Part shown: positions 7,155 through 25,928 of the stretch, in pieces | Position numbering within the stretch: the stretch's first letter is position 1 | Layout: the number at the start of each line of letters is the position of its first letter | Assembly: GCA_963729635.1 (NCBI GenBank) | Contig: CAVSOP010000006.1 | Span: forward strand, 27,283-91,282 | DNA: 64,000 nucleotides | From: an uncultured archaeon | Lineage (GTDB): Archaea; Micrarchaeota; Micrarchaeia; Micrarchaeales; CABMGC01 | Direction: 5' to 3' | Translations under genes and position numbers: made by a program | The notes under the pieces: model-generated | Database searches by the model: none | What the model saw: the letters and a program-made list of their open reading frames with translations, nothing else | What the model was told of the DNA's origin: nothing

Positions 7155-8573
7155 GTGATTTGCGTGGGAGCTGAAGAAGCGCTTAATCTGCTGAAGGAGA
7201 AGAACGTAAAGTGGGTCGACGTCCAGTTCACAGACCTGCTCGGGAGGCTGCAGCACATAACCGTACCCTCGAAGGACTTCGACGATAAGTGCTTCGCGGA
7301 GGGATTCGGGAAGCTCGACGGGAGCAGCATAAAGGGCTTCACCTCGATAAACGAGAGCGACATGCTCCTGGTCCCGGTGCCGGAGACCATGACGATGATC
7401 CCTTGGATGGAGAAGACCGCCAGGGTCCTCGCCAACGTCCAGTGGGGCGGGGGGCGGGGCAGGTTCGAGAAGGATCCCAGATTCATAGCCGAGTCCGCCG
7501 AGAAATACCAGAGGGAGCGCGGGTTCAGCAGCTTCTACGGGCCCGAGCTGGAGTTCTTCATATTCGACAAGGTCGAGCTCGACGTCTCGACTCCTCAGAG
7601 CGGCACGTCCTACAGGCTGAGCTCGAGGGAGGCCCCATGGCAGAAGACCGGGAACTTCATGGTCAGGTACAAGGAGGGCTACTATCCCGCGCCTCCAGTG
7701 GACCAGCTGATGGGCGTCAGGATGGAGGCGGTCAACGCGCTCACGGACTATTTCGGATTCAACATAGAGGCCACGCACCACGAGGTGGCTACGGCTGGCC
7801 AGGGCGAGATAAACTTCACTTTCTCGACGCTGACGGATTCCGCCGACAAGGTACAGACGCTCAAGTACGTTCTGAAGAACATTGCCGCGAGCCACGACAT
7901 GGTCGCGACATTTATGCCGAAGCCCATGTTCGGGGACAACGGCACGGGCATGCACACCAATCTCAGCCTCTGGTCGGTAGACGGGAAGAAGAACGAGATG
8001 TACGACCCGAGCGACTCCTACGCCGAGATCAGCCAGACGGGGAGATACGCGATAGGAGGCATACTCGCCCACGCGCGGTCGCTCTCCGCGATCTCGTCTC
8101 CCACCACGAACAGCTACAGGAGGCTGATACCGGGATACGAGGCACCGGTCTACACGGCGTGGAGCAAGGCCAACAGGAGCGCGATAATAAGGGTGCCCGC
8201 ATACTACAAGGGGATGGAGAAGGCCAAGAGGATAGAGTACAGGGCCCCGGACCCTTCGGCGAACCCGTACCTCGCGTTCGCTGCGCTGCTAATGGCCGCG
8301 ATGGATGGCATAAACAAGAAGATCGAGCCTGCGGGGCACGTCGACGAGAACATATACCACCTCAGCAAGGACAGGAGGAAGGAGCTGAAGATAGGGGAGC
8401 TCCCGAGGTCCCTGGACGACGCGCTCGACGCCCTGGAATCCGACAGCGCGTTCCTGAAGCCGGTCTTCAACGACTCACTTCTGGACTCATACATCGAACT
8501 CAAGAGGGACGAGACCATGACGATGGCTCAGTACCCCCACCCGATGGAGTTGTACTACTATCTTGACGTCTGA
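7155..8573 (+). CDS. glnA: Glutamine synthetase type I
   Basis: Intact 472-aa ORF with GS hallmarks ([71 protein letters not shown]). GTG start is uncertain by a few codons. Confidence 0.95.
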
Positions 8574-9099
8574 GGGAGGACAGGACGGGGTGCGACTCCT
8601 CCTTATCCTCTACGCGGTTGAGATACAGCGCCGCGGCGAAGAGGTACGAGGACAGCCGGTTGAGGTATGCCTTGACATTGCCGTCCACCTGGTGGCTCCC
8701 GGCGGCCTCCAGCACGCTCAACTCGGCTTCCCTGGTCATGGCCCTTAATACGTGCAGCCGCGCCGCACCTGCGCACCCTCCCGGGTTTACGAAGCGCCCG
8801 GGACAGGGCACCACTTTCTCGATGACGTCCATGCGCGCCTCGAGCCGCGCTATCGGGTCTGCTAGGGCCCTGGAATCGCCGAGACCCGACAGCACTGCGC
8901 CTACCTCGAAGAGATCGTTCTGCACGCTCGCGAGCCCCGATCTGACGCGGCCGTCGCTCACGTAGCAAAGGGCCAGGCCGAGGCCGCTATTCAGCAGGTC
9001 TATGTCCGCCAGCGCGCGTATGATGGGATCAGTTTTGGGAACGGACTTGCCTAGGGCGAACGTCGTTCCCCCGTCACCGGCTCTGGTGTAAAAAGGCAT
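8500..9099 (-). CDS. pduO: PduO-type ATP:cob(I)alamin adenosyltransferase
   Basis: N-terminus [13 protein letters not shown] ... [10 protein letters not shown] ... [10 protein letters not shown] ... [13 protein letters not shown] matches the PduO/MMAB family. The C-terminal tail overlaps glnA convergently by 73 nt, so the true stop may be earlier. Confidence 0.85.
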
Positions 9100-9135: not shown

Positions 9136-11472
9136 TCAGGCGTATTTCACCGATGCGCGCAGCTTCCTTACGACCTCGCCCTCCTGCGCACCGATCTCCT
9201 TCTTCAGGCTCTTCCTTATTCCCGACAGCGAGCGCTCCACGCTCTCGTACGCCCGCGTCAGCTCGTCGAGCCGGCCGGCGTTCTCCCTCAGCCGCAGCAG
9301 CACCTCCGCGTCGGCGGTCTTGCTCATGAGCTTCCTGTTCGCGGCGCTGAGCTTCCTCACCGACCTGCCGTACTTGATGAACCCCTTGAATGTCGAGTTT
9401 GAGACCCTGTCGAACCTCCTGCTCCACGCGCAGACCTCGTCCATCACGGTGGCTAGTTGGTCGGCGGTCAGGGGCGCGGACGTCGCATTCCTGAACTTCT
9501 CGAAATCAGCTTCGCGGGCCTTCATGTACCTGCCCAGCAACTCGTCAGATATCCGCTTGGCGTCGTCGGCGCGCACGCCCTTCGCGCCGGATGTGAATGC
9601 CTTGTCGTACTCCTGCTTCTGCTCGCCGTTCAGGGTCGCGTACGCCTCGTTTATCTTCTGCATGATCTGGCCCGCGTCTATCTCCTTGCTCACGTCGGGG
9701 TGGTGCTTCTTGACCAGCTCCTTGTATGCGCGCCTTATCTCCTTCTGGTCGGTGGTGTACTTTATCCCGAGAACCGAGTAATAGTCTGCGGCGCCGGATA
9801 CGCGGAGGTCCATGCCGAACGCGCCGGCCTCCTTCTCGAGCATCTTCACGAAGCGATCGCTGTTCAGCAGCAGCCTCTCAGTGTACCTGTCCCTCATCGC
9901 CGTGTCGAAGGCTCTGAATGCGCCAGCGGCCCTTCCCAGAATGCCCAGAAGGGCGAGCATCAGCAGTTCAATCAGCGAGCCTCCGCGCTTCGCCGCGCCT
10001 TCGGTGGAATGCGCGGATGAGGCGGTCCCGCGAAGCCCGGTCTTCGGGCCAAGGCCGCCCGAGGCAGGGGATTTCTTGCGGATCCTGCCGCCGATACTCA
10101 GGTAGTGGGATTTCTTTTTCACTGCTTCGCCTCCATCGTCTGTCGTGTGCGACGCGGGCAGGCTAGCCTGGATTACCGCGTCCTTGGGAATCCCGTCGCT
10201 CGACCTTAGGACCTGCTTGTACGTCTCGTGCGGATGCTTCCCTTGCTTCCCCGTCAGGGCCTGCGGCGTTGCGCGGCGGTCAGCCATCGAAGGCCCGAGG
10301 GCGCCCTTCCCATCGCGAATCGCCCCTGGTCTGTAATCCGCAGTCCCCAGAACATATGAGCGGCCGGCAGTTGTCAGGTCGACTCTCGCTTGTCGCGAAT
10401 CATGAGGAGCATTCAGCGAGAGTTCGCTTACAACGGAAATTTCGCCAGTATTCCCAATCGCGTACACGAGCCTTTCCGCTCCGGTACGATTCACTACTGC
10501 GGAGTTCTCCCTGTGATATCCGACAGGAGGGATGAACTGATTCGCCGCGTAAGCAGGCAAAGCTGCGAACTGCTGCGCCATCGCGAATGCCGCGACGGCT
10601 TTCAGGGATTCGGATCCTTCAAGAAGTCCCGCCTTCGGCAGGGCTTCCGAGTAGCCCGAGAACACGGGAGCCCAGAGAGAGGCGGCAATCAGGGACGCCT
10701 TGAATCCCCGCGCGTCCCCTGCAGAGAAGCCTTCTTGCCTCGCTATCTGCATCACCCTTCCGAGAGCCGCGGTATGCTCTGAGTAGGTCGCGGCCCGGGA
10801 CGAGCCCCTTTGGGCGGAGACCTGCGCGATCGACGATACGGAGCCCTGAGTATTCTGCACTCCTGAAATCGCAGACGGTACCCTGACTTCGCCGAATGAC
10901 GCGATGATCCTGGCTCCCGATTCCGCGCCGGCAGTCGCCCCGCCATACGACATGCGGATCGTGGGACTGCCCGCAACCGGGCTCAGCGACGGCTGCATAT
11001 CGTGCAGCTTCGAAATCCTCAGGAAATCTACGACGTCCCCGCTCTGCGCCATGAACTTCACGCCGGAAGCACTTAGGGCAAGGGCGGCATTCGGAGTGAT
11101 CGCGCCGCCGCCGAGGAACCTTATATCGCCATGGCCGTTCGCCCGCAGGTAAGCCACGGTATCCGCAGCCATCCTCAGATGCGAATCGCTCGGCAGGCTG
11201 AACGCCACGGCTCTCGCGCCGTACTGCGCGACAGCGTCCGAGATTGCCGCGTAGTCTTGCGGGTCGCTCAGATATATCGCCCTGAAGCCGGCGCGGTTGA
11301 GGTCGTGGGCGACGGTCCTCGCGCCCATGGCGTGCGGGTCGTCCCCGAGTTTCACCACCAGAACCGCTTCGCCCGAGTTGCTCTCTCCATCTCGATCCAC
11401 GCGTCCGCCAATATCTTTGACGCGGCCGCGGTCCCCAAGCTCTTCAACTGCCCGCTGTTGGCGGCGAGCCAA
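9136..11472 (-). CDS. Multidomain protein: cobalamin-binding (DxHxxG) Rossmann-like domain, long linker, TM segment, DnaJ (J) domain, coiled-coil tail
   Basis: B12-binding motifs: VLVVKLGDDPHAMGARTVAHDL (DxHxxG), FSLPS (SxL) and FLGGGAI (GG). TM segment GSLIELLMLALLGILG. J domain DYYSVLGIKYTTDQKEIRRAYKELVKKHHPD. The start is uncertain: a GTG is possible near 11390, or the gene may fuse to the upstream ORF. Confidence 0.7.
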   Translation of the reverse strand: MARRQQRAVEELGDRGRVKDIGGRVDRDGESNSGEAVLVVKLGDDPHAMGARTVAHDLNRAGFRAIYLSDPQDYAAISDAVAQYGARAVAFSLPSDSHLRMAADTVAYLRANGHGDIRFLGGGAITPNAALALSASGVKFMAQSGDVVDFLRISKLHDMQPSLSPVAGSPTIRMSYGGATAGAESGARIIASFGEVRVPSAISGVQNTQGSVSSIAQVSAQRGSSRAATYSEHTAALGRVMQIARQEGFSAGDARGFKASLIAASLWAPVFSGYSEALPKAGLLEGSESLKAVAAFAMAQQFAALPAYAANQFIPPVGYHRENSAVVNRTGAERLVYAIGNTGEISVVSELSLNAPHDSRQARVDLTTAGRSYVLGTADYRPGAIRDGKGALGPSMADRRATPQALTGKQGKHPHETYKQVLRSSDGIPKDAVIQASLPASHTTDDGGEAVKKKSHYLSIGGRIRKKSPASGGLGPKTGLRGTASSAHSTEGAAKRGGSLIELLMLALLGILGRAAGAFRAFDTAMRDRYTERLLLNSDRFVKMLEKEAGAFGMDLRVSGAADYYSVLGIKYTTDQKEIRRAYKELVKKHHPDVSKEIDAGQIMQKINEAYATLNGEQKQEYDKAFTSGAKGVRADDAKRISDELLGRYMKAREADFEKFRNATSAPLTADQLATVMDEVCAWSRRFDRVSNSTFKGFIKYGRSVRKLSAANRKLMSKTADAEVLLRLRENAGRLDELTRAYESVERSLSGIRKSLKKEIGAQEGEVVRKLRASVKYA

Positions 11473-12161
11473 TCGGGGTTTACTTGCTTGTCCAGTGCAA
11501 ATTTGGAAGCATAACTCGCGAAGGTCGGGTCCTTGAGCATGTCGCGCAGATCCCGATTCTGCACCAGTTTCTTATCAGTCAGTGCGTCCGCATCGCCAAT
11601 CTTGTTGGCAGAGGCCAGCCAATTGCTGGTCCCGCCGGCACCCATGTGCTCGTATAGGTCCCACATCCTATCTGAGAAGAACCTCTGGTCTGCCAGTGCG
11701 TCGTACCCTTTCCATCCGATCACGAACAGGACGGAGGCCGCAACGTACAGGTCCCGACCTCGCATGGAATCGAAGAATTCCCCGGCGGTGAGCGCTTCGA
11801 AATGGCTCCCGTTGCTGTCTTCGTTGAGGGCGATCATGTGTTCGAGGCGGATGAGCGGGTCGAGCCGCATCATCTCGCCCCCTATCCTCTCCAGTTTCTC
11901 CGCCGAGATGCCAGGGGAGACATGGTTGATCAGCGCTTCGACGTTCGCGGGCGTCCCGATTCTTCCGGCATACTCGCGCATCTTCCGCTCCTCGTTGAGA
12001 GACCGCTCCTCCCCTTTCTCTTCCTTGCTCTTCTTCTCGCTGTCGCAGAAGAATTGGCCGATTACGGGCTTCGCTTCTCTGATGGATTCATTTACCGCGG
12101 AGTAATCCTGCGTCTTCGGAGTCGGCTTCCGGACGGTGGCTGAGATGGTCTGGACCGCCAT
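11352..12161 (-). CDS. Hypothetical protein, first gene downstream of the cobalamin riboswitch-like leader (possibly the N-terminal part of the B12-binding protein)
   Basis: Intact 269-aa ORF with GGAAGGGGTGA upstream of the ATG. No family recognised. Its 3' end overlaps the next ORF by 120 nt in another frame. Confidence 0.5.
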   Translation of the reverse strand: MAVQTISATVRKPTPKTQDYSAVNESIREAKPVIGQFFCDSEKKSKEEKGEERSLNEERKMREYAGRIGTPANVEALINHVSPGISAEKLERIGGEMMRLDPLIRLEHMIALNEDSNGSHFEALTAGEFFDSMRGRDLYVAASVLFVIGWKGYDALADQRFFSDRMWDLYEHMGAGGTSNWLASANKIGDADALTDKKLVQNRDLRDMLKDPTFASYASKFALDKQVNPDWLAANSGQLKSLGTAAASKILADAWIEMERATRAKRFWW

Positions 12162-12276
12162 TCAATCACCCCTTCCGCGCGGGGCCAGCCGCTGCGGGCT
12201 TATCTGACAAGGATGACGCTTTGCGTTCTCGGCTGGTAGAAATAGGCGCGTTTTATACATCTATACCCATGCTCGT

Positions 12277-12459
12277 GAGCTACATAGGACTCAGGCAGAC
12301 TGGCTTACCCGCGAGCGGGATTACAGTTGCGGCACAGCAGTGGAATCGCACCACTTTCCCCTGACTTTAGCTGGATCTGAACCCAGCTGTCCGGTGATAC
12401 CATTCGGAAGGATACGCTTATAATCCCTGCCAAGAAATTCTGGCACAGGACTATAGCTC
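12277..12459 (-). promoter_or_regulatory. Cobalamin (B12) riboswitch-like aptamer
   Basis: Minus strand reads AGGGGAAAGUGGUGCGAUUCCACUGCUGUGCCGCAACUGUAA, which matches the conserved core (compare E. coli btuB AGGGAAUCCAGUGCGAAUCUGGAGCUGACGCGCAGCGGUAA). This is followed by a CCCG-CUCG-CGGG hairpin and a B12-box-like AAGCCAGUCUGCCUG. A P1-like pairing GAGCUAUA (12452-12459) / UAUGUAGCUC (12277-12286) encloses it. Confidence 0.75.
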
Positions 12460-12541
12460 CAAGGCAACCTAACGTGCGCGTAAAGTCTTATAATCTTGCT
12501 CATCCTGTAGCTCTCGGACTGCTTTATCGCTGGATGAGAGA

Positions 12542-12739
12542 ATGGCCAAGGACAAATACAAAGGATGCATGCCTGGATGCGGATGCGGCAGCGCGGCCTA
12601 CGGGCTGGGGTTTATCGGTTCGCTGGTGTATTACGTGAGCACCGCGGCGACCTTCTGGCTCGCGGTCCTGGGATTCTTCAAGGCGCTGGTCTGGCCGGCC
12701 TTCCTGGTATACGGCCTGCTCAAGTTCCTGGGAATGTGA
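12542..12739 (+). CDS. Small Cys-rich membrane protein (65 aa)
   Basis: ORF MAKDKYKGCMPGCGCGSAAYGLGFIGSLVYYV... with two hydrophobic spans. No family recognised. Confidence 0.4.
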   Translation: MAKDKYKGCMPGCGCGSAAYGLGFIGSLVYYVSTAATFWLAVLGFFKALVWPAFLVYGLLKFLGM

Positions 12740-12837
12740 AAGGCCATCGCAGAGATAGGAGGGGCTCCAGCACAATTGAAACCGAATCCCAAGATTACTC
12801 CGAAATACTGCACGTTGGTGTCTTGCACTAGGCTAAC

Positions 12838-13908
12838 TTATTTTAATGTCACAGATTTTTCGATAAACCTGCCATAGCTGTCGGCGGCTTCCTTGATCCC
12901 TTCGTTTTGTTCCTTGTTTAACTTGGTGAAAGGAGACAGGGCGATCGTGACCCTGTTCTTCTCTTCCTTGCGCCTCCACGTGCCAATCACTCGACCTTCC
13001 GACACCAGAGCAGGCAGGAACGTCCCATTCGATCCATTGATGACCTTCGTCGCGTATTTCGGTTCGATTATTGATGCCCGATTCTTGTAAGCGACAAGAT
13101 ATTCGTCGAATGCTGGCAGCAAGTATGTGGTCCGCTTGGCTTGGTTGGCAGATGGATTCTTCTTCGGCATCCAATAGGTGTCCCCTGTCGATGTGTCTTC
13201 CTTCATGCGGGATGAGATTGCATCAAGGCCCGATTCAGCATCGCCCAGGCCGATGCCGGCCCACCACGCAAAATCCTTCAATGTTGCGGGACCATGACTC
13301 CCGAAATAGGTCCTGGCCAGCTTTGCAAGCACCGCGTCACGATTCGGCGGCTTTGGCACGGGGCTCTTAAACAGCGCGAACGCGGGACGGCCGCTGACGT
13401 GCTCGCTAAAGCAGATTATTCCCTTGCGGCCCGACCTTCGGATTATGTGCCTCTGAACATCGATTTTCCTGAACTCAGGTATGCCGGAATCTGAAAGCAC
13501 CCTGCCGAGATCTTTGTAGGTTAGCTGCCTTTCGTGCTTGAACGCATCTGAAACGAGCTCCATCCCCTTCTTGAGAAGTGGCCTGGTCAGTCCGTTCTTG
13601 CGCTGGCGACTTGGGATGCTGGCGTCTTCATGGTAAAGGCTCAGCATCCATTTCACCTCTTTTGGCGGAACCAGGTGCCATGTGCCGCGCATCGCCCAGG
13701 TCCTTATGATCTTTCTCTCCGCAATTGCATCCTCAACATCGGATTGCGTCGCCTTCTTGCAGCGGAGCCCCACGGCCCACAACGCATCCCGGTAAGCCTG
13801 CGCCTGAACTGCACCAAGATAGGATACGAGCCCTTCTGGTCTCATCGGCGATGGCTGGGAGATGCATTGATTGGCGAGCCTTAGCCTCGTTATCTCGTCG
13901 TTATCCAT
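12838..13908 (-). CDS. AlkZ/YcaQ-like winged-helix DNA glycosylase (DUF1006 family)
   Basis: Intact 356-aa ORF. N-terminal LGAVQAQAYRDALWAV contains a Q-x-Q motif like AlkZ. RTWAMRGTWHLVP, FAWWAGIGL and LLPAFDEYLVAYKNR match the family pattern. Visibly lower GC than the surroundings. Confidence 0.7.
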   Translation of the reverse strand: MDNDEITRLRLANQCISQPSPMRPEGLVSYLGAVQAQAYRDALWAVGLRCKKATQSDVEDAIAERKIIRTWAMRGTWHLVPPKEVKWMLSLYHEDASIPSRQRKNGLTRPLLKKGMELVSDAFKHERQLTYKDLGRVLSDSGIPEFRKIDVQRHIIRRSGRKGIICFSEHVSGRPAFALFKSPVPKPPNRDAVLAKLARTYFGSHGPATLKDFAWWAGIGLGDAESGLDAISSRMKEDTSTGDTYWMPKKNPSANQAKRTTYLLPAFDEYLVAYKNRASIIEPKYATKVINGSNGTFLPALVSEGRVIGTWRRKEEKNRVTIALSPFTKLNKEQNEGIKEAADSYGRFIEKSVTLK

Positions 13909-13912
13909 TGCC

Positions 13913-13929
13913 CCAGCCAGATTCGAACT
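13913..13929. repeat. 17-nt direct repeat of the 3' end of tRNA-Gln (CCAGCCAGATTCGAACT; second copy 13946-13962)
   Basis: Perfect 17-nt copy located 33 nt from the copy inside the tRNA. It looks like a truncated T-arm/acceptor remnant. Confidence 0.8.
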
Positions 13930-13940
13930 CGAACATGAGA

Positions 13941-14013
13941 TAGCTCCAGCCAGATTCGAACTGGCGTCAACGGGTTCAGAGCCCGCTATCCTTGGCCGCT
14001 AGACTATGGAGCT
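13941..14013 (-). tRNA. tRNA-Gln (anticodon CUG)
   Basis: Reverse complement AGCTCCATAGTCTAGCGGCCAAGGATAGCGGGCTCTGAACCCGTTGACGCCAGTTCGAATCTGGCTGGAGCTA folds as a cloverleaf. It has a 7-bp acceptor stem, a GTTCGAATC T-loop, anticodon loop CUCUGAA and discriminator A. Confidence 0.9.
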
Positions 14014-15270: not shown

Positions 15271-17434
<2,164 letters not shown>

Positions 17435-17435
17435 T

Positions 17436-17858
17436 TTGCGATTAGAAGGTGTTTTTATAAAAATAGTATTCTCAGACAAGAAGACCGGGAAAACAGCGCA
17501 GCTTGAAGTGCCGAAGGACAGCGAGCCCATGCTCATAGGCAGGAAGATGGGCGAGACGGTGGAGGGCTCGGTAGTGGGCCTCGACGGATACACCCTGAAG
17601 ATAACGGGCCTCAGCGACAAGACGGGCGCCCCCTCCAGGAGGGAGGTCGAGTTCAGCCGGAAGTCGTTCGTGCTTCTCAGCGGCGGGCCGGGGATAAGGA
17701 ACTCGAAGAAGGGCAGGAGGATAAGGAGGCTCATAAGGGGCAACACCATAAGCGTCGACACGGAGCAGATAAACACCGTGATAGAGCAGTACGGCTCCAA
17801 GGGCGCGGACGAGATCTTCCCGAAGAAGGCGCCGAAGGAGGAGGAGAAGAGCGAGTGA
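17436..17858 (+). CDS. rps6e: 30S ribosomal protein S6e
   Basis: KIVFSDKKTGKTAQLEV ... GYTLKITGLSDKTGAPSRREV ... GIRNSKKGRRIRRLIRGNTIS is typical of S6e. The start codon is uncertain. Confidence 0.85.
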   Translation: MRLEGVFIKIVFSDKKTGKTAQLEVPKDSEPMLIGRKMGETVEGSVVGLDGYTLKITGLSDKTGAPSRREVEFSRKSFVLLSGGPGIRNSKKGRRIRRLIRGNTISVDTEQINTVIEQYGSKGADEIFPKKAPKEEEKSE

Positions 17859-17875: not shown

Positions 17876-19099
17876 ATGTTTATGGAAAAGATAAAGCAGA
17901 GCCAGATGAACATAGGCACCCTCGGCCACGTCGACCACGGGAAGACCACGCTGACCTTCGCCATAACCCACGCCTGGACCGACGTCCACAGCGAGAGCAT
18001 AAAGCGGAGCATGACCATCAAGCTCGGATACTCCGACGCGACGATATACCGCTGCGGCGAGAGCGGCTCGATGGAGTCCTACATCACCGAGGAGAAGTGC
18101 AAGGACGGCAAGGACGGCCGACGCCGGTCAGGAGGATATCGCTTCTCGACGCGCCCGGGCCACGAGACGCTCATGGCCACCGCCATAGCGGGGTCCAACA
18201 TAATAGACGCCGCGCTCTTCGTCATAGCCGCCACGGAGCCGTGCCCGATGCCGCAGACGAAGGAGCACCTGATGCTGATAAACGCGCTGGGGATAAGGAA
18301 CGTCATAGTCGTCCAGACCAAGGTCGACATAGTCGGCAAGGAGCAGGCGATGAAGCACCACGCTCAGATAAGGAACTTCATCAAGGGCAGCAGCATAGAG
18401 AACGCCGAGATAATACCGGTAATGCCGAACAAGAACATAAACGTCGACGCGGTGCTCGAGGCGATCGTGAAGATGGAGCTGCCCAAGCGCGACACCACGT
18501 CAGACCCCACGATGTACGTCGCGAGGTCCTTCGACGTGAACAGGCCGGGCACGAAGATGTCCGAGCTCCTGGGAGGGGTCGTCGGCGGATCGATAATAAA
18601 GGGGAAGCTCAAGGTCGGCGACGAGATAGAGATAAGGCCGGGCATCAACACTTCAAAGGGCGACAAGAAGAAGGTATCGTACTCGCCGATAATAACGACG
18701 GTCGAGAGCCTCCTCGCCGGGAAGGACCCGCTCGACGAGGCCATAGCTGGCGGGCTCATAGCGGTCGGCACGGACCTGGACCCGTCGTTCACCAAGGCCG
18801 ACGCCCTCGTCGGGCAGATGGTCGGGCGCGTCGGGAAGCTGCCCGGAGCCGGTCATGGAGATAGACGTCAAGTACACCTCGCTCGACAGGAACGACATCC
18901 CGAAGCAGGCCTTCAGGCCCAACGAGCCCCTCATGCTCGGCATAGGCACCGGCACGAACGTCGGCTACGTCAAGGTCGCCAAGAAGAACTCGCTGACCAT
19001 AGAGCTCAGGCACCCGGCGTGCATCGACAAGAACACGAAGGTCTCGGTGCTGAGGAACTTCTCGCAGAGGTGGCACCTCTCGGGCTACGGAGTGCTTAA
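17876..19099 (+). CDS. eif2g: Translation initiation factor aIF2 gamma subunit, apparent frameshift near 18845, 3' end approximate
   Basis: G domain NIGTLGHVDHGKTTL, DAPGHETLMATA-like RPGHETLM, and VQTKVDIV (NKxD-like). The C-terminal domain continues in ORF 18855..19298 (MEIDVKYTSL...RWHLSGYGVL). The conserved S6e-aIF2gamma neighbourhood is present. Confidence 0.9.
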   Translation: MFMEKIKQSQMNIGTLGHVDHGKTTLTFAITHAWTDVHSESIKRSMTIKLGYSDATIYRCGESGSMESYITEEKCKDGKDGRRRSGGYRFSTRPGHETLMATAIAGSNIIDAALFVIAATEPCPMPQTKEHLMLINALGIRNVIVVQTKVDIVGKEQAMKHHAQIRNFIKGSSIENAEIIPVMPNKNINVDAVLEAIVKMELPKRDTTSDPTMYVARSFDVNRPGTKMSELLGGVVGGSIIKGKLKVGDEIEIRPGINTSKGDKKKVSYSPIITTVESLLAGKDPLDEAIAGGLIAVGTDLDPSFTKADALVGQMVGRVGKLPGAGHGDRRQVHLARQERHPEAGLQAQRAPHARHRHRHERRLRQGRQEELADHRAQAPGVHRQEHEGLGAEELLAEVAPLGLRSA

Positions 19100-19184
19100 C
19101 GTGACTAGTCAGAGCAGGCCCAGCTTCTTCGACTTCGACACGATCGCTCCGAGAAGCCTCTTCCTTCCTGAAGCCTTGCCGATG

Positions 19185-20104
19185 TCATACTGCCCTCGGC
19201 ACCTCGAATCCCGCCGCGTGCGGATGGCCTCCGCCGCCGAACGCCATAGCCAGCGCGGTCATGTCGCTCTTGACGCTCCTGATGCTGGCAGTGCGTGAGC
19301 CGGTCTTGATCAGGATGCTTATGTCCGCACCAGTCCTGTCGAGCATCGCGCGGCAGGCGTCGCTCGAATCGACCTCCTTGGAGAATCCGACGGCCATCTT
19401 CCCCGAGACCACTTCCAGGCCGCCCAGCAGGGCCCTTATCCTCAGGTTATTGGTGCGCTCGTAGCTCTTCGCGGCGTCGCGCATGCTTCTTGTCGAAGAA
19501 CCTCCCCGAGCCGATGACATCGGCGATCCTCCTGAGCCGCTTCTGCCTTGCGTCGAACGAGCCCCCGCTGCCCAGGTGGTTTATGCTCATCGAGTACGTC
19601 CTTGCCGCGGAGCGGGACCATGAGGGGTTCGGCAGGGAATCGAAGCCCAGGAATAGGTCGATGCAGTGCACGAGGCCTGACGAACCTCTCCACGAAGTCG
19701 CCGGTGAGTCGGGTGTACTTCTTGGTTATGTCCGTGGCGCAGGCGCACCTGTTCTCCCCGACGATCGCGGTCTCGCACCTCCTTGGCTATCTCACTGAGT
19801 CGCCTGTCGCTCCAGTAGTGGTGGTCCAGCCAGACCACCGCGCCGCCCTTAGACCTGACAAGCCTGACGAAACGGGAGACAGTGGCGTGGCAGGTTCGGG
19901 TTCAGGGAGAGGTCCGTGAAGAACACGAGGGAGCCCTTCCCCAGGCGCGGCGCGATCCTGCGGATGGCGTCCTCGAAGTCCGCCAGCGAGTGGTTGACGA
20001 AGAAAAGGTCTGCCGGAGTCGAGGTGGTACCTCATCTTGAGCAGCGAGGCGCTGCCCACGCCGTCTATGTCGTCGGCATGGGAGACGACGAAAGTGCTTT
20101 CCAT
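19185..20104 (-). CDS. DHH/DHHA1-family phosphoesterase (NrnA/RecJ-like), several apparent frameshifts
   Basis: N-terminal MESTFVVSHADDIDGVGSASLL (DHH-type motifs) in ORF 19787..20158. C-terminal GGGGHPHAAGF (DHHA1 motif) in ORF 19185..19520. The middle lies in other frames. Confidence 0.7.
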
Positions 20105-20238
20105 GTTCTTATCTGCACGGCAAGAATAATAGAGCTTTTCGGGATCACGGGCGGGCACGCCTCCGGCTGGGGTCCATTACACTAATTGAAGGATTAGAAG
20201 GGCCTGGACTTGGGGGAAGTGCAGGCCCCTGGTCCCCC

Positions 20239-20798
20239 TTACGGGGGAGATACAATTAGTGTGTTGATCGCCTTGCCAGCATCATATTTGTAATAAACCT
20301 TGTGACCGAGCTGAAGCCTGTCGAGCAGGCCGAGCCTGTGAAGGTTGTTGAGCCTCGCGCAGGCGGCGTTATTGCCCTTGTAATTCATGAACGCCCTGAC
20401 CTCCTCGCGCGCACGCCATACCCTTCGTCTGCACGAAGTTTATCAGCTTGGCGTCGACGCCCGAGAGGGGCACCTCCCTGCTGTTCTGGGGGGCGTAGTC
20501 GTCCTGCTGCCCGCTCAGCTCCAGAGCGCTTATCTCGTCCTCCAGCTGCTTGAGCTTCAGGGTCACGTTTTCTAATATCCTATTAGTCTTCCCGCGCTCG
20601 TCCACCAGATACTTTATCAGCGTCGGACAGGCCGGCGTTCTCGGGGATCTCCTCTTGGTTCTTCTCGGAGACGACCTTGAGCTCCCTCCTGAGCTCCTCG
20701 ATCTCCTTTTCGACCTGTTTGTTGTCCATTCGACCATCCCCTGCGCGCATTCCAGATGCATCCCTGATACTTCCCTGATCCTTACCTGATGAGCTCAT
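20239..20798 (-). CDS. Coiled-coil plus winged-helix (MarR/TrmB-like) DNA-binding protein, apparent frameshifts
   Basis: MDNKQVEKEIEELRRELKVV... then LKLKQLEDEISALE and VDAKLINFVQTKGMACAEEVRAFMNYKGNNAACARLNNLHRLGLLDRL after frame correction. The stop lies inside the hairpin CCCCCTTACGGGGG. The start is uncertain (20729/20750/20798). Confidence 0.5.
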
Positions 20799-20873
20799 AA
20801 TTGATTCACGCCACAAGCATGAAACAATCATGAAACAATCATATGTAACGCTTGTCAAGATATTTAAACATTG

Positions 20874-20881
20874 CGTTTTTG
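20874..20881. repeat. 8-bp target-site duplication CGTTTTTG (left copy; right copy 25929-25936)
   Basis: An identical octamer directly abuts both terminal inverted repeats. 8 bp is the duplication length characteristic of the IS6 family. Confidence 0.85.
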
Positions 20882-20935
20882 GGTTCTGTCCATAAACTCG
20901 GCACCTAAATCATAGTGTCGCATTCGGCACCTGAG
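20882..20935. repeat. Left terminal inverted repeat of the IS6-family element
   Basis: GGTTCTGTCCATAAACTCGGCACCTAAATCATAGTGTCGCATTCGGCACCTGAG aligns with the reverse complement of 25876-25928. It contains two copies of the sub-repeat TCGGCACCT. Confidence 0.85.
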
Positions 20936-21593
20936 CGATATTGCTCTCTGAACTAAGTTTTATCAGGCTTAGCCACCTGTTTCTTTCGTTTCCTATGCTT
21001 ATTCCAGCGACCTCTGACGGCGTTAGCCCATTAAAGGTCTGGTGTGGTCTTACGAAATTGTAAAAGGTCTTCCAGTTCTCTATGTATCGCTTTGCGGTCT
21101 TTTCGCTCTTAAGACCACGAATGACCTTATCCCTTTCACGATAGGTCGCATGATACCTCTCTATGAGTTGGTTGTCCATCTTGCTTGTTGCGTGCAATAA
21201 ACTCTCGTCCTGCACGTTCAAGCCGTGTATCCTATGCCAACCTATCATAAACTCCCTTCTTATCGCCTTAGGGTAGAATTTGCCCTTGTCCGTCGCTATC
21301 TCTGTCGGTTTCTGCGATAGGTAAGGTTTAGCCTTCTGCATTATGCTTCTTGCGTCGTTTATGAACCTTGACTTTGTTATCTGGTTTGCGAGCAGGAAGC
21401 GTGTTTTGTTGTCAAGGACGTTCCAGCACCACTCATTCGCTTTGCCTATCTGCACCGATTGTTCGTCTATGTGTATCCTTTCGCTTGTCTGTGGCTTTAG
21501 GGTGTTGGTGTAATCGTTTATCCTTGACATGAAGCGGTTATAGCCTTCCACTAAAGTCTTCGGGGACAAAAATACATAAATCTGCGTTTCTGA
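20910..21593 (-). pseudogene. IS6-family DDE transposase, C-terminal (catalytic) fragment
   Basis: HIDEQSVQIGKANEWCWNVLD (D), IATDKGKFYPKAI (D) and NQLIERYHATYRERDK (E; compare IS26 NNVIECDHGKLKR). There is no ATG. The reading frame opens right at the IS630 boundary. Confidence 0.8.
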
Positions 21594-22651
21594 ATGTCAA
21601 CCGCGACCAGAAATGACCTTGGAAGAAGATTCTTCCACTTTGAATGAACTTGCAGAAAAGTCCAAGAGTGCGAAGGATTATGAGAGATTGAGGGTGCTAT
21701 ACGCAGTTAGCATCGGCAAATCTGTCAGAGAGATCGCGGAAATCTTTTGTATTGACGAGGACACTGTATATACATGGATAAAGAAGTGGAAAGAGAAAAG
21801 AAACGTGTTCGATGAACCGCGCAGTGGTAGGCCACCATCATTTACAGAAGAAGAGAAAAAGGAATTGAAGAAACTGATTGATGAGAACGACCCCGGTAAG
21901 CACGGCATGAATGCCAGTTATTGGGATACGAAGGAACTGACGAGATACTTCGTGAAGAAGGGAATAGATGTCTCTCAGGAGACGCTGCGAAGGACCCTCC
22001 ACGAGATGGGCGCGCACTACGTGAAGGCAGAGATACATTACAGCGAAGCAGATTTCGGAAGGCAGGCGGAATTTGCAAGGCAATTCCTATCTGATGTCGA
22101 GGAGAAACCCGCAAATGTCATAATTCTGTTTGGCGATGAGATGGGTGCCAACAGGTCACCAAAGAAGGGGTATGGATGGACCTTCAACAAGAGACTTGTC
22201 GTCAAGGCGCAGCAGTCCCAAAAGGAAAAGACGAATTGCTTCGGCGCGACAGATTCCATAAATGGCGATACGATACAAATGCAATCGAAGAGTGCAAAAA
22301 GCGATGCGTTTGTGAGGTTCCTACAGAAAATAAGCGCAAAATATCCCGATAACATTGTCTGGCTCTATTTGGACAACGGACAAGTGCACAAGTCGGTCAA
22401 AGTGAAGAAGTATCTTCAGAATAATCCGAATATAACCTTGAAGTTCCTTCCGCCCTACTCTCCAGACCTTAACCCGCAAGAACAGATGTGGAAACATGAA
22501 CGGCGGAAGTTCCTGAACAACAGGTGTTTTGATTCGTTACATCAGTTGTCTTTGTCATTGAACTGGTTCGTAAAGAGACTTGGAAAGGACGAAGTGCGTA
22601 GCGTCTGTTCACTCATTCCTATTGAACAGATGATTGTACCTCAGTACTGAT
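21579..22651 (+). mobile_element. IS630/Tc1-mariner-family insertion sequence nested in the IS6 transposase gene (boundaries approximate)
   Basis: It sits exactly between the two halves of the IS6 transposase. Candidate TA dinucleotides are at 21577-21578 and 22652-22653. I could not identify convincing TIRs. Confidence 0.6.
21613..22650 (+). CDS. IS630-family transposase
   Basis: Intact 345-aa ORF. N-terminal HTH (SVREIAEIFCIDEDTVYTWIKKW, RSGRPPS), then DDE-type core (ILFGDEMG, WLYLDNGQVHKS, LPPYSPDLNPQEQMW). Confidence 0.9.
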   Translation: MTLEEDSSTLNELAEKSKSAKDYERLRVLYAVSIGKSVREIAEIFCIDEDTVYTWIKKWKEKRNVFDEPRSGRPPSFTEEEKKELKKLIDENDPGKHGMNASYWDTKELTRYFVKKGIDVSQETLRRTLHEMGAHYVKAEIHYSEADFGRQAEFARQFLSDVEEKPANVIILFGDEMGANRSPKKGYGWTFNKRLVVKAQQSQKEKTNCFGATDSINGDTIQMQSKSAKSDAFVRFLQKISAKYPDNIVWLYLDNGQVHKSVKVKKYLQNNPNITLKFLPPYSPDLNPQEQMWKHERRKFLNNRCFDSLHQLSLSLNWFVKRLGKDEVRSVCSLIPIEQMIVPQY

Positions 22652-23237
22652 TACTTCTGTGGAATGCTATAATCCAGCGTCTTACTGTTTCATGGTGCAG
22701 TTTCAGACCAAAATTCTTATAGAGTGTGTCCTGAATATCCCTAAGCGAATTGCCCTTGTAATACATATCAAGGACAAGACAGACCATACGGGCGTTGCCC
22801 TTGATACCCTTAGTCGGGTCAAGGACAAAGAAGGTGTTGCAGGTCTGGCACTTGTATTTCTGTTTTGCACCCGATTTGTTCTTCCTCTTGCCTTTCTGTA
22901 TCAACTTGTCGCTCTTGCAGTTAGGGCATATTCTTTCGTCTGTTATACTTTCAACGTCAAAGTCTTCAAGTTCTACCTTGTTCTTTAGCTTGTTGAACAG
23001 GATTATCGACTGAATGTGCTTGCAGTATATTCCGTTTCCCCTGCATCTGCTTAGGTAATCGGGACAAGTGCAAGAATAGGCGTCTATGTGGCTTACTGTG
23101 TATTTCTTGGTGCCATCAGAGGAAGGCACCAGATAGACGCCTTCGCTTACTGTTTCTGGGACTGCCTTGTTTAGCAGAGCCGAAGCCCTTTCCTTCCTAT
23201 CGTCAGACAGCTTTTTCAGGTCTGTGTTTGCGTTCAT
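22641..23237 (-). pseudogene. IS6-family transposase, N-terminal fragment (SWIM zinc finger, zinc ribbon, HTH)
   Basis: CTCPDYLSRCRGNGIYCKH (SWIM-like CxCx(n)CxH), CPNCKS...CQTC ribbon, and SLRDIQDTLYKNFGLKLHHETVRRW (HTH). It terminates at the IS630 junction. Confidence 0.75.
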
Positions 23238-23264
23238 ATTTACACCTTCTTTGTTTCCTTCTGT

Positions 23265-23283
23265 TCTATATATAATATATAGA
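23265..23283. promoter_or_regulatory. 19-bp perfect palindrome TCTATATAT-A-ATATATAGA in the divergent transposase / RHH-methyltransferase promoter region
   Basis: 9+1+9 palindrome in the AT-rich 85-nt spacer between the transposase start (23237, minus) and the RHH start (23323, plus). Confidence 0.6.
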
Positions 23284-23322
23284 GCATATAGATATATATA
23301 CTTATTGGTTCATTACTTAATC

Positions 23323-23484
23323 ATGGGTAAAACAAAGAAACCTGAGGATAAGGCAATAACTAAGTCCATTACTATTTTACCTCGCCATGAGGAATATATA
23401 CAGTCTAATTTTATAAACTTGTCAAAGTTCGTGCAAGGCAAGATAGACGAGGAAATAAACAAAAAGAAAGGTGTTAAAAAATGA
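23323..23484 (+). CDS. Small ribbon-helix-helix-like DNA-binding protein (controller-like)
   Basis: 53 aa, MGKTKKPEDKAITKSITILPRHEEYIQSNFINLSKFVQGKIDEE. It follows a beta-strand then helix pattern like CopG/RHH proteins. Its stop overlaps the methyltransferase ATG (ATGA). Confidence 0.5.
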   Translation: MGKTKKPEDKAITKSITILPRHEEYIQSNFINLSKFVQGKIDEEINKKKGVKK

Positions 23485-25871
23485 CTGAGGACACCGAAAA
23501 GAAGTCTGAGATGGACGTTATTTTCAAGCAGATTGCACCAGTATTGGAGAAGTTGGGATATAGCGAAAAGGTCAAGGGAGAGATTGAGCATGAAAAGTCA
23601 ATTCAGATAGGTAAAGGCAAATACGTCTATCCAGACATAGTAATCAGCATTAAAGGCGTTCCTGTAATCGCCCTTGATGGAAAGAACCCAAACGAGAATT
23701 TAGACTTATACGAAAGGCAGATACTCGCTTATGGCTTGTTGCTAAAGACACCTTATTCAGTTCTATCAAATGGAAGCGTAATCAGGGTCTATGAGACACA
23801 AACAGAAAAAGTGATATGGGAAAAGGCGATAGACAAGACGCCGACCTTCCTCTCTAAAGAAAATCTAATCAAGAAGATAAGTAAGACAATAGAGACAGTC
23901 TCCGAGGAAAGACTGGAAGAAGCCAAGAAAACGCTGCTCGTCTTTGAGGGGATAAAAGAGTTCTCAAATATCCTATCAAAATGCGAAGACACAATAAGGG
24001 ATATTGATGGTCTAACTGGTGCTGACGCTTTTGATGAGATTAGCAAATTGCTTTTTACGAAGATGTATTTTGAGAAGAAGGCGATAGAGGGTGGTTCAAA
24101 CTTATTCTCGCTCACAAACATAAAGAGTAATGGCGGTGCGAAGTACGTGCGAGAGTATCTTTTCAAGGCAGCGAAGGACAACAACAAGGACATATTCTTA
24201 GGGAATGAGACGATAAAGCTGGAAGATGCGAGCATAGAAAAGATGGTCGGACTTTTGCAGGATTACACCCTCATACGAACAGATGTAGATGTTAAGGGCA
24301 AAGCGTTTGAGATATTCTTAGGGAAGACCTTTACTGGCGATTTGGGTCAGTTCTTTACACCAAGAACGATAGTTAGGTTTGCGGTGCTTTTTGCAGACCC
24401 AGAGATAAATTCGCCGATAGATGAGAAGGGCAAATCGCCCTATCTTGTCCTTGACCCTGCTTGTGGTTCTGGCGGTTTCCTCATAGAAATATTTAACGCC
24501 ATACTGGAAAAGATAAAACGCCAGCCAGCGAGCAAACAAGGCGAGCTATTTGAACAGCTTAGAATGAAGCAAATCTTCGGGATAGACATTAATGAACGCT
24601 TGGTCAGAGTAGCGAAAATGAACATGGTGCTACACGGGGACGGACACGGTGGCATATACAAAGCGAATGGACTGGAAGGAACAGATAACATCAAAGATGG
24701 CACGTTTGACCTCGTTATCACAAATCCGCCTTTCGGCAATAAGGACACCAAGCCCGACCTGCTAAAGAATTTTGAACTGGGAAAAAGAGAAGGCGCACCC
24801 ATGAAAGAGCAGCTAAGGGAGATACTTTTCGTTGAAAAATGCATTAATCTCTTGAAAGCGGGGGGGGGCGAGCTTGCAATTCTGTTGCCTGATGGGATAC
24901 TAAACAACGAAAGAGGAACGTATGTAAGAGACTTCATAAAGTCAAAGACCATAATCAAGGCAGTTGTCAGCTTGCCAGACAGGGCATTCAAAGCCACTGG
25001 TGCGAACAGCAAGACAAGCCTACTATTCCTCAAAAAGAAGTCTGATGAAAATGAGCCACAGCCACCGATATTCATGGCAGTTGCAGAGTATGTTGGTTAT
25101 GAGACACGGACAAAGGAAGCCAAGCAGATAGAGGCTAATGACCTTCCTAAGATACTGGACACTTACAAAGAATATAAGTCTGGCAAGTTCTTTGAGAACG
25201 TGAAAACAAAGACGGACACACTTGAGATTTTGCAGAATACACCTTCTTGTTTCCTGATAGGCACTGATTTTGTGAAGGACAGGATAGATGCAACTTACTA
25301 CTATGCGAAGTATATCTTTGAACTGGAAAAGGAAGGTTGCATAGTCAGTGATGTTGCGAGCAGGTCAGAGGTAATAGTCAATCCTCAGAAAGAACCCACA
25401 AAAGCGATAAGATACATTCAATACAGCAACATAGAGAAGAATTTGGGCGACGTGATAAATTACCTTGACTTATTGGGAGAGGAAGCACCATCAAGGGCAA
25501 AGCTGTTCGTGAATGCTGGTGATGTTATCGCTGCTAAGGTCAAAGACAGCGAGGAAAACATAGCGATAATCCCTAAGGAACTGGAAGGGTCAATAGTCTC
25601 ATCAGGGTTCGTAGTGGTCAAACCGATAAAACCCATGACCTCTGAAGCACTATTCGTATTGATGAGACTTAGAACCACCACCAATCAGGTCAGATGGAAG
25701 TCGTCAGGAACGATACTTCCCTCTATCTCCGATGAGGAATACATGACCATCAAGATACCCAAATTGACTGAAAAGGAGATAGAACGGATAACAAAAGAGG
25801 TCAAAGAAGTCAATATCCAAAGAGCAATAATAAAAGACACGCTCAACAAGCTCTCAGTAGAATTCAAGTGA
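23481..25871 (+). CDS. Single-chain R-M-S-like protein: HSDR_N/PD-(D/E)xK-like N-domain, gamma-class N6-adenine DNA methyltransferase, one HsdS-like target recognition domain
   Basis: Intact 796-aa ORF. N-domain YVYPDIVISIKGVPVIALDGK (PD...DxK). MTase motif I VLDPACGSGGFLIE and motif IV ITNPPFGNK. C-terminal TRD-like RAKLFVNAGDVIAAKV...SSGFVVVKP...ILPSISDEEYMTIKIP. Confidence 0.85.
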   Translation: MTEDTEKKSEMDVIFKQIAPVLEKLGYSEKVKGEIEHEKSIQIGKGKYVYPDIVISIKGVPVIALDGKNPNENLDLYERQILAYGLLLKTPYSVLSNGSVIRVYETQTEKVIWEKAIDKTPTFLSKENLIKKISKTIETVSEERLEEAKKTLLVFEGIKEFSNILSKCEDTIRDIDGLTGADAFDEISKLLFTKMYFEKKAIEGGSNLFSLTNIKSNGGAKYVREYLFKAAKDNNKDIFLGNETIKLEDASIEKMVGLLQDYTLIRTDVDVKGKAFEIFLGKTFTGDLGQFFTPRTIVRFAVLFADPEINSPIDEKGKSPYLVLDPACGSGGFLIEIFNAILEKIKRQPASKQGELFEQLRMKQIFGIDINERLVRVAKMNMVLHGDGHGGIYKANGLEGTDNIKDGTFDLVITNPPFGNKDTKPDLLKNFELGKREGAPMKEQLREILFVEKCINLLKAGGGELAILLPDGILNNERGTYVRDFIKSKTIIKAVVSLPDRAFKATGANSKTSLLFLKKKSDENEPQPPIFMAVAEYVGYETRTKEAKQIEANDLPKILDTYKEYKSGKFFENVKTKTDTLEILQNTPSCFLIGTDFVKDRIDATYYYAKYIFELEKEGCIVSDVASRSEVIVNPQKEPTKAIRYIQYSNIEKNLGDVINYLDLLGEEAPSRAKLFVNAGDVIAAKVKDSEENIAIIPKELEGSIVSSGFVVVKPIKPMTSEALFVLMRLRTTTNQVRWKSSGTILPSISDEEYMTIKIPKLTEKEIERITKEVKEVNIQRAIIKDTLNKLSVEFK

Positions 25872-25875
25872 TTTC

Positions 25876-25928
25876 CTCAGGTGCCGAATGCGACAAATTA
25901 GTTCAGGTGCCGATTATGCGACAGAACC
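25876..25928. repeat. Right terminal inverted repeat of the IS6-family element
   Basis: Reverse complement GGTTCTGTCGCATAATCGGCACCTGAACTAATTTGTCGCATTCGGCACCTGAG. It starts 5 nt after the methyltransferase stop codon. Confidence 0.85.

Follow-up and report, generated by a model that had tools for sequence, protein, structure and literature searches.

The riboswitch classes seen in archaea are those for thiamine pyrophosphate (TPP) and fluoride and, sporadically, the flavin mononucleotide (FMN), Mg2+-I and guanidine-II classes (McCown et al. 2017, PMC5473149). Only one archaeal riboswitch, the fluoride riboswitch of Thermococcus kodakarensis, has been tested experimentally (PMC8241225). Cobalamin is missing from the passages in which published sources list archaeal classes (PMC5473149; PMC8281238, citing Gupta and Swati 2019), and a review sentence describing the cobalamin class as widespread 'in bacteria and archaea' gives no example (PMC9600662). 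Our full-text literature searches turned up no description of a cobalamin riboswitch in any archaeon, nor any paper in which Micrarchaeota and riboswitches occur together. In early comparative work, Vitreschak and Rodionov reportedly saw no B12 element in archaea in 2003. Here we describe a cobalamin riboswitch-like RNA encoded in 64,000 nucleotides of DNA from an uncultured archaeon of the Micrarchaeota (GenBank assembly GCA_963729635.1, contig CAVSOP010000006.1, positions 27,283 to 91,282 of the forward strand); this whole stretch is called the window, and all positions refer to it unless another contig is named. The element lies on the minus strand, in the divergent intergenic region 12162-12541.

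To judge from the comparisons presented below, the element is most likely a genuine cobalamin riboswitch of an archaeal mRNA, in whose 5' leader purifying selection maintains it, with a predicted OFF switch gated by the hairpin P13 and a predicted relay through a short leader open reading frame (ORF). As an RNA it is of a known kind and belongs to an established family, but its host domain is new and its expression platform an adapted one.

Results

Detection of the aptamer

A cmscan search of the window with 4227 Rfam families gave a single match to RF00174 (Cobalamin), which scores 36.8 bits where the family's gathering score is 31.5 (E 1e-5). The alignment spans the model from end to end (positions 1-189), with the P2 hairpin at the J1/3 position, and clan competition in the Rfam scan retains RF00174 as the top model. 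No further riboswitch was found in the window at a relaxed Rfam E-value. The GGGAA junction, the GGUGnnAnUCC L4, GCUG..CCGCAACUG and the AGCCAG..CC B12 box, which are the conserved motifs, are all found between 12361 and 12292, and a degenerate pattern of the cobalamin core is matched at a single site of the window and in none of 100 dinucleotide shuffles. A first-pass annotation, made from the sequence alone, had proposed a cobalamin riboswitch in an archaeal genome at 12277-12459; the score above threshold and the archaeal genes in the context support this proposal, and the core, the short P6 hairpin and the B12-box-like sequence that it listed on the minus strand are all present (Table 1). 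Since the aptamer passes the Rfam threshold, annotation pipelines may already tag such matches silently.

Conservation and covariation in archaeal copies

The first-pass annotation had suggested looking at homologous leaders, and there the core is conserved: RF00174 matches stand before the orthologous gene in contigs L001 (40.2 bits), L002 (33.5 bits) and L138/L139 (35.2 bits), and the scores of the relatives range from 33.5 to 42.9 bits. Over the stretch that runs from the aptamer to P13, identity to the window is 98.6% in L001 and 90.8% in L002; outside it the platform reaches 63% and 59%, respectively, and the 1.46 kb of coding DNA that is conserved best reaches 77% and 70%. The aptamer being more conserved than the coding DNA, the RNA element is more constrained than the protein that it precedes. 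The L001 aptamer, which was assembled independently, differs from that of the window at 2 of 140 positions.

Nine distinct archaeal-type copies could be aligned, and they precede two different families of B12-related genes. When the proposed structure was imposed on this alignment 94% of the cells were paired, compared with 27-42% in slid controls, and the covariation score was reached by 0 of 500 shuffles. Nine pairs show compensatory changes (three in P1, two in P13, the others in P2, P4, P5 and P6), which is the covariation that the annotation had proposed to look for. Examples are a U-A to C-G swap in P4, G-C to A-U in P6 and, in L132, G-C to A-U in P5. All four pairs of the kissing loop between L5 and L13 are kept and invariant, as is CACGAGCAUG. 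The archaeal copies are 78-99% identical among themselves; the next best sequence among the matches listed, L064, is clearly more distant. In alignment A6, P2 was paired in 97.6% of the cells and had one covarying pair.

All nine archaeal-type copies carry (C)TTATAA(A/G) 22-27 nt before P1, and with a TATA box at such a fixed distance the transcript should begin within a few nucleotides of P1. The first-pass annotation had also named a TATA-like element. The window does contain two copies of ATTATAAG, but the one chosen there (12495-12485) is not conserved, the conserved one being that at 12425-12415.

Covariation in short-P6 relatives

A metagenome scan with a degenerate short-P6 core pattern returned at least 120 loci. 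The majority of the matches listed have a bacterial appearance, showing either AAGGAGG and an ATG or terminator hairpins. In a MAFFT alignment of 107 short-P6 sequences 77% of the cells were paired, as against 66% after shuffling (0/500) and 34-47% in slid controls, and the covariation score was 0.255, as against 0.101 (0/500) and 0.05-0.11, respectively. P4 was 99.4% paired with three covarying pairs, and five of the five P6 pairs covaried. P1 was paired in only 35% of the cells in this set, where MAFFT misaligned it, thus support for P1 comes from the archaeal set only.

The register of the kissing loop can be read from these relatives. The hairpin directly following P1 has the loop C-G-x-G-N, in which N covaries with the second variable base of L5 (G-C, C-G, A-U), and the variable L5-L13 pair is CG in 71 sequences, GC in 22 and AU in three. 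The combination seen in the window, L5 GCCG with L13 CG-A-GC, fits this covarying register. Two other pairings were abandoned: that of L13 CGAGC with GCUCG in the loop of P6 does not hold in L046 or the bacterial relatives, and a 6-bp pairing of L5 (CUGUGC) with GCAUGG was replaced by the register supported by covariation (GCCG with CG-x-GC).

Two folding approaches were likewise set aside. Minimum free energy (MFE) folding of single sequences, whether of the aptamer or of whole leaders, is uninformative for an RNA with tertiary structure (z-scores around zero), and RNAalifold on four sequences gave partly non-canonical pairings with zero compensatory pairs, and was replaced by explicit counting of the structure.

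P13, the leader ORF and the start codon

The span proposed by the first-pass annotation ends within the conserved P13 hairpin, which it had missed. P13 is weak by itself (about -3.4 kcal/mol), as expected of a helix that needs a ligand-stabilised kissing loop to persist. In the bacterial-looking relatives the 3' strand of P13 is a Shine-Dalgarno (SD) sequence (AAGGAGG), with an AUG 6-8 nt further on. The archaeal copies have UGGG, UGGU, UGAU or UGGUGA as this strand, which are partial to good matches to the archaeal SD (GGUGAUC), and the AUG lies 4-6 nt beyond the helix. In L046, L129, L132 and L138 the regulated gene starts at this AUG; in L131 the gene starts 9 nt after it. In the window, L001 and L002 it opens a leader ORF, of 32, 23 and 32 codons, respectively, whose UGA abuts the main AUG in frame in each case. 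The window and L001 leader ORFs differ by an indel of 27 nt, so that the ORF stays in frame. A rough, post hoc estimate of the probability that frame and end pattern agree by chance is about 0.003.

At one further locus (L134 2397-2525, also in L135) the P13 AUG opens a 42-codon ORF that overlaps the annotated start of the DUF6580 gene by 25 nt in another frame. This locus has either a different variant of the platform, acting by termination, or a mis-called gene start.

Two structural claims of the first-pass annotation did not hold in full. The enclosing 8-bp P1 that it had drawn (12460-12451 with 12286-12277) is not conserved, the complement being absent from L002, L138 and other relatives. 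The 5' strand of that helix, GGAGCUAUAG (about 12460-12451), is a remnant of the 3' end of tRNA-Gln and lies upstream of the only conserved TATA box; an intact tRNA-Gln ends at this very site in L001, 45 nt before the riboswitch. The CCCC/GGGG hairpin over the SD-like sequence before the main ATG does exist in the window, but it is not conserved as an OFF switch in L001 and L002.

The regulated genes of the window

The gene behind the leader is broken into two ORFs in the window. An unbroken homologue, P0002 (984 aa, 60-62% identical), indicates that these are one gene. The protein is an unusual fusion and consists of a helical N-domain, a Rossmann B12-binding domain, about 370 disordered residues and a J-domain, in this order; Pfam assigns the B12-binding domain (9.6e-11, with the DxHxxG motif) and DnaJ (4.1e-15). 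The structure is predicted with confidence at residues 8-375, and the best folds in the PDB are the Cob domain of MetH, CarH and MttC, i.e. cap-plus-Rossmann cobalamin modules. In this protein and P0002 the N-domain contains about five 35-aa repeats with a 'TGNxxALT' motif, and there is a hydrophobic helix before the J-domain and a coiled coil after it.

An exhaustive phmmer search found 15 representative relatives of the regulated protein, unlike a word-index search with the 269-aa ORF, which gave no match. The N-domain is followed by a B12-binding domain in 10 of the 10 relatives scanned against Pfam, the J-domain being present in the closest three only. Named relatives are annotated as 'cobalamin-dependent protein [Candidatus Micrarchaeota archaeon]', and one is from Marsarchaeota.

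Downstream of the regulated gene, and probably co-transcribed with it, lies a gene for a PduO-type ATP:cob(I)alamin adenosyltransferase (Pfam Cob_adeno_trans 2.7e-37; TIGR00636 120.5 bits, cut-off 108.45). Together with the B12-binding domain protein it bears out the B12-related function that had been anticipated for the downstream genes. The adenosyltransferase gene is not at the corresponding position in L001 or L002. In L002 (7564-8198) this place is occupied by CopG/RHH-like and PIN-domain genes, a VapBC-type pair as judged from the translations by eye.

Archaeal context and other archaeal copies

The window encodes aIF2-gamma, S6e, CDC48/VAT, an archaeosortase-like protein and an element resembling a C/D-box small RNA (sRNA). 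The riboswitch and its gene are flanked identically in L001, a 237-kb Joint Genome Institute (JGI) contig, and in L002, a 242-kb contig of a metagenome-assembled genome (MAG) of an uncultured archaeon: tRNA-Gln, an M50 peptidase, CDC48, S6e and aIF2-gamma are on one side, and GlnA on the other. On the evidence of the information-processing genes, the conserved TATA box and the independent assemblies, the genome around the riboswitch is archaeal.

Among the matches listed from the metagenomes L046 is the closest relative. It is closely preceded by a TATA box and a tRNA gene, and the gene downstream codes for a 186-aa DUF6580 membrane protein, whose homologues named by NCBI come from Micrarchaeota, Micrarchaeales, Diapherotrites and 'ainarchaeum' (DPANN archaea). 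We inspected the contigs of seven DUF6580 homologues for RF00174, and found it directly upstream of the gene in L129 (38.5 bits), L131 (40.7), L132 (38.2) and L134/L135 (40.0), but not in L127, L130 or L136. L129 stems from a MAG assembly called 'Candidatus Micrarchaeota archaeon' by NCBI, and the nearest copies of the riboswitch are located in Micrarchaeota-type contigs. To judge from these relatives and from the named members of the regulated protein family, the host is most likely a DPANN archaeon of the Micrarchaeota (phylum Microcaldota) type.

A structural model of DUF6580 (predicted local distance difference test score, pLDDT, 86.7) resembles the S-components of energy-coupling factor (ECF) vitamin transporters, with template modelling (TM) scores of 0.6-0.72 and probability around 1 at weak E-values; a sequence search of the PDB with the DUF6580 profile gave no match. 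In relatives DUF6580 adjoins B12-radical-SAM or DUF4430 genes. In the riboswitch-free contigs of Diapherotrites (L130 3047-5546; L136 3034-3483) it stands before B12-binding radical-SAM genes or the gene of a DUF4430 protein, which supports a corrinoid link for DUF6580. A role of DUF6580 in corrinoid uptake is plausible.

Repeatedly an archaeal copy is closely preceded by a tRNA gene on its own strand, at a distance of 45-800 nt (L001 9639-9711, L002 3239-3311, L046 1761-1831 and L134 2003-2184). This may reflect compact genomes, or the spread of a cassette via tRNA-linked integration sites.

Table 1. Positions of the riboswitch leader, its genes and other features of the window
Feature	Position	Strand	Remarks
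TATA box GATTATAAGCG	12415..12425	-	core TTATAA 12423-12418; 26 nt before P1; (C)TTATAA(A/G) conserved
Transcript start (predicted)	about 12398-12394	-	from the usual archaeal TATA-to-start spacing
Cobalamin aptamer	12275..12405	-	RF00174 match
Core GGGGAAAGUGGUGCGAUUCCACUGCUGUGCCGCAACUGUAA	12361-12321	-	read directly in the sequence
P1	12392-12389 with 12290-12287	-	GGAC paired with GUCC; three pairs with compensatory changes in the nine archaeal copies
P2 hairpin GCUGGGUUCAGAUCCAGC	12370..12387	-	aligned to the optional hairpin of RF00174
P3 5' strand/J3-4 (GGGGAA) and P4-L4 hairpin (AGUGG UGCGAUU CCACU)	12339..12361	-	covariation
P5/L5 GCUGUGCCGCAAC	12326..12338	-	kissing nucleotides G12333, C12332, C12331, G12330
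Short P6 hairpin UCCCGCUCGCGGGU	12307..12320	-	without peripheral P6 extension; P6 region has 6 nt in place of 61 Rfam model positions
B12 box/J6-3 and P3 3' strand AAGCCAGUCUGCCUG	12306-12292	-	followed by the P1 3' strand
P13 hairpin CUCA-CGAGCA-UGGG	12266..12279	-	expression platform; L13 C12275, G12274, G12272, C12271; 3' strand SD-like
L5-L13 kissing pairs (four)	12333-12330 with 12275-12271	-	G12333-C12271, C12332-G12272, C12331-G12274, G12330-C12275
Leader ORF, 32 codons (MYKTRLFLPAENAKRHPCQISPQRLAPRGRGD)	12162..12260	-	AUG 5 nt after P13; UGA 12164-12162 abuts main AUG 12161 in frame
Hairpin CCCC-GCGCGGAA-GGGG	12165..12184	-	hairpin 12184-12169, overlapping SD-like GGGGUGAU (12172-12165); window sequence
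Regulated gene	9136..12161	-	single coding sequence with frameshift about 11390-11380; ORFs 11352-12161 and 9136-11472
B12-binding domain (DDPHAMG)	about 11364-11059	-	in the regulated protein
J-domain	about 9786-9604	-	in the regulated protein
PduO-type ATP:cob(I)alamin adenosyltransferase	8500..9099	-	36 nt downstream of the regulated gene
tRNA-Gln	13941-14013	-	
Insert between tRNA-Gln and riboswitch	12451-13929		about 1.45 kb; lower GC (0.545)
AlkZ-like DNA glycosylase	12838-13908	-	in the insert
65-aa membrane ORF	12542-12739	+	in the insert
Partial tRNA-Gln 3'-end repeats	13907-13929 and 12461-12451		flanks of the insert; the first 91% identical to 13940-13962, the second TGGAGCTATAG
Low-GC island	20000-26000		GC 0.42-0.49, about 0.60 elsewhere
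IS630-like DDE_3 transposase	21613-22650		in the low-GC island
Large N6 DNA methylase/restriction-modification protein	23481-25871		in the low-GC island
Rfam sR14 match	53943-53997	+	adjoins tRNA-Cys; 32.3 bits, below the gathering score of 38; E 8e-5
Laminin_G_3 (concanavalin-like) surface proteins and exosortase/archaeosortase-family protein	41572-51665 (-), 54011-55153 (+)		three large surface proteins

Other features of the window

The insert between tRNA-Gln and the riboswitch, with its glycosylase and membrane-protein genes and its flanking tRNA repeats, gives the impression of a scar left by an element integrating at the tRNA; no integrase remains. Besides the regulated gene, essential genes of the window are broken up, with CDC48/VAT in at least five pieces and aIF2-gamma in two (15271-17445, 17876-19298), all split by frameshifts; the L001 homologues are intact. 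These splits are most likely indel errors of long-read assembly and not pseudogenes. The sR14 match is a candidate archaeal C/D guide sRNA. A Laminin_G_3 protein, of which the window encodes three, also adjoins the riboswitch in the Micrarchaeota contig L129.

Discussion

Computation shows that the RNA belongs to the cobalamin family and is conserved, that its helices and kissing loop covary, that a promoter motif precedes it and B12-related genes follow, and that the geometry of P13 and AUG is fixed. Corrinoid binding, the OFF polarity and the coupling of the upstream ORF (uORF) to the main gene are what we infer from these sequences. The mechanism that we propose would work as follows. Transcription would start at the TATA-box promoter a few nucleotides before P1, and the RNA would adopt the classical aptamer fold with a four-way junction (P1, the P2 hairpin, P3-P6 and the B12 box), in which P6 is a simple hairpin. 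Upon corrinoid binding L5 (GCCG) would dock through four base pairs on L13 (CG-A-GC) of P13, just 3' of P1. P13, locked by the kissing loop, would hide both the SD-like UGGG of its 3' strand and the AUG that follows after 5 nt, and the start of the archaeal 30S subunit would be blocked (OFF). In the window the main gene, and probably the PduO adenosyltransferase as well, would depend on translation of the leader ORF, either through termination-reinitiation, or through melting of the CCCC/GGGG hairpin over the main SD, or both. Not being conserved, this hairpin can be at most accessory.

Several observations speak against this interpretation. P1 of the window is weak (4 bp and two outer pairs), and thermodynamic folding alone misses the cobalamin fold, the stability being no better than that of shuffled sequences (z 0.07 to 0.54). 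The uORF argument was made post hoc and rests on two to three lineages, and in L134 the leader ORF overlaps the main start and does not abut it, while a T8 tract after P13 hints at a termination variant. In L127, L130, L136 and L137 the homologous genes lack a riboswitch even when E 0.01 is allowed, thus the regulation is patchy. Finally, the assembly is rich in indels, yet the aptamer itself is nearly identical in L001, as noted above.

It is conceivable, but unlikely, that the element is a genuine cobalamin riboswitch acting on transcription or RNA stability, by pausing or termination at U tracts or by ligand-dependent cleavage. Archaeal intrinsic termination requires only oligo-U. L134/L135 have their T8 tract about 25 nt past P13, stretches rich in U also come after P13 in the window (CUAUUUCU), in L001 (AAUUUUCC) and in L046, and terminator hairpins are employed by some of the bacterial-looking relatives within this subfamily. 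However, the U tracts of the window and L001 are short (3-4 U) and not conserved in position, and in five archaeal copies the start codon of the gene, 4-6 nt past P13, leaves no room for a terminator; what is invariant is the geometry of P13 and AUG. We find it rather improbable that the CCCC/GGGG hairpin directly masks the SD of the main ORF, with P13 and the leader ORF playing no role, as the first-pass annotation would have it. The hairpin overlaps GGGGUGAU only 4 nt before the AUG, but L001 and L002 retain merely the SD-like purine stretch and UGAAUG at this place and no equivalent hairpin. Moreover, it has no alternative pairing with the aptamer, which lies about 100 nt upstream, and it is constitutive in MFE folds. 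It is P13 and L13 that are conserved and covary instead, and the hairpin may still be the element that uORF translation must melt.

That the leader is a decaying relic of a horizontally transferred bacterial one, with regulation lost, seems very improbable. The fold is of bacterial type, the closest non-archaeal relatives (L064 and others, among the matches listed) look bacterial, and both the weak P1 and the patchy distribution among homologous genes would suit a relic. A relic would hardly be conserved above the adjacent coding DNA, with its helices maintained by compensatory changes in nine archaeal copies and its L5-L13 complementarity intact, behind a conserved archaeal TATA box and before B12-related genes in two unrelated gene contexts. 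A chimeric joining of a bacterial fragment to archaeal DNA during assembly or binning, which the many frameshifts of this error-prone assembly might bring to mind, can be practically discounted, as the same arrangement stands between the same archaeal neighbours in the independent contigs L001 and L002, and the archaeal TATA box is present with no bacterial promoter or terminator features seen.

The riboswitch reading with P13 gating translation leaves the question of origin. The first-pass annotation had offered a choice between a horizontally acquired regulatory RNA and an overlooked archaeal class. The latter fits best, with nine copies before two gene families, although an old transfer from bacteria is still likely, since the fold and the kissing loop are common to many bacterial-looking metagenome sequences. 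We would give about even chances to a broader picture, in which Micrarchaeota-like DPANN archaea keep their own clade of cobalamin riboswitches, characterized by archaeal promoters, a transcript start at P1, and P13 gating the start codon or, in the lineage of the window, a leader ORF coupled by UGA|AUG. This would be the first such regulon described in Archaea, and it would control the scavenging (ECF-S-like DUF6580) and handling (B12-binding J-protein, PduO) of corrinoids in organisms that presumably depend on the B12 of a host or neighbour.

Riboswitches are rare in archaea, and a conserved archaeal clade would add a second cofactor class to their repertoire. At about 140 nt and with its predicted start at P1, the element is a compact natural system in which to study how an aptamer of bacterial type is coupled to the initiation of translation in archaea, with the candidate uORF relay as part of it. 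It suggests that genome-reduced DPANN archaea regulate their acquisition of B12, and flags DUF6580 and the protein with the B12-binding N-domain and J-domain as uncharacterised parts of corrinoid uptake or handling. Perhaps it could also be used as an inducible expression tool for archaea.

It is instructive to compare the window RNA with the cobalamin riboswitches described previously. With RF00174 (clan CL00101; E. coli btuB, B. subtilis btuF, Thermoanaerobacter tengcongensis PDB 4GMA) it shares the core GGGAA, the GGUG..A.UCC T-loop, GCUG..CCGCAACUGUAA and the AGCCAG B12 box, and also the P3-P6 four-way junction, the closure by P1, B12 genes, and an L5-L13 kissing loop to a hairpin with translation-initiation signals. 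The role of the kissing loop in cobalamin riboswitches has been described (PMC9600662 and papers cited there). Unlike the bacterial examples, the window RNA has an archaeal host and a TATA box 22-27 nt before P1 in place of a sigma-70 promoter; unlike the RF00174 model it has a bare P6 hairpin, and its L5 is one nucleotide short of the consensus. The 3' strand of P13 is UGGG, UGGU or UGAU in archaea, at best a partial archaeal SD, compared with AAGGAGG in bacteria, and the AUG of the window belongs to the leader ORF. The bacterial-looking short-P6 riboswitches of metagenomes (L028, L113, L064) share the register of L5 (GCUGUGCCGC) and L13 (CGAGC), the short P6 and the P13-AUG spacing, but they lack a TATA box and carry either AAGGAGG in P13 or terminators of the rho-independent type.

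The window RNA also resembles Cbl-II riboswitches in its size (about 130 nt), in being devoid of the P6 extension and in the L5-L13 kissing loop directly after P1. The env8 hydroxocobalamin riboswitch (PDB 4FRN), said to have been described by Johnson and colleagues in 2012, is reportedly a minimal Cbl-II without P6 extension, and cobalamin riboswitches without this extension were, according to the same authors, said to tend toward corrinoids with small upper ligands. Feedback by adenosylcobalamin (AdoCbl) would suit the operon, with its adenosyltransferase gene, equally well. Cbl-II is defined by a T-loop in J1/3 (PMC6158498), which interacts with J6/3, and has the variant core of RF01689; no such T-loop was identified in the window RNA. 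Unlike Cbl-II, the window RNA retains the classical RF00174 core (ACUGUAA ... AAGCCAG) and the P2 hairpin, therefore it is not assigned to Cbl-II, and the ligand preference of that class (small upper ligand versus AdoCbl) is not transferable to it. The known archaeal riboswitches provide another parallel: like the window RNA they have a bacterial-type aptamer behind an archaeal promoter and are probably translational, and they differ from it in the class of the ligand.

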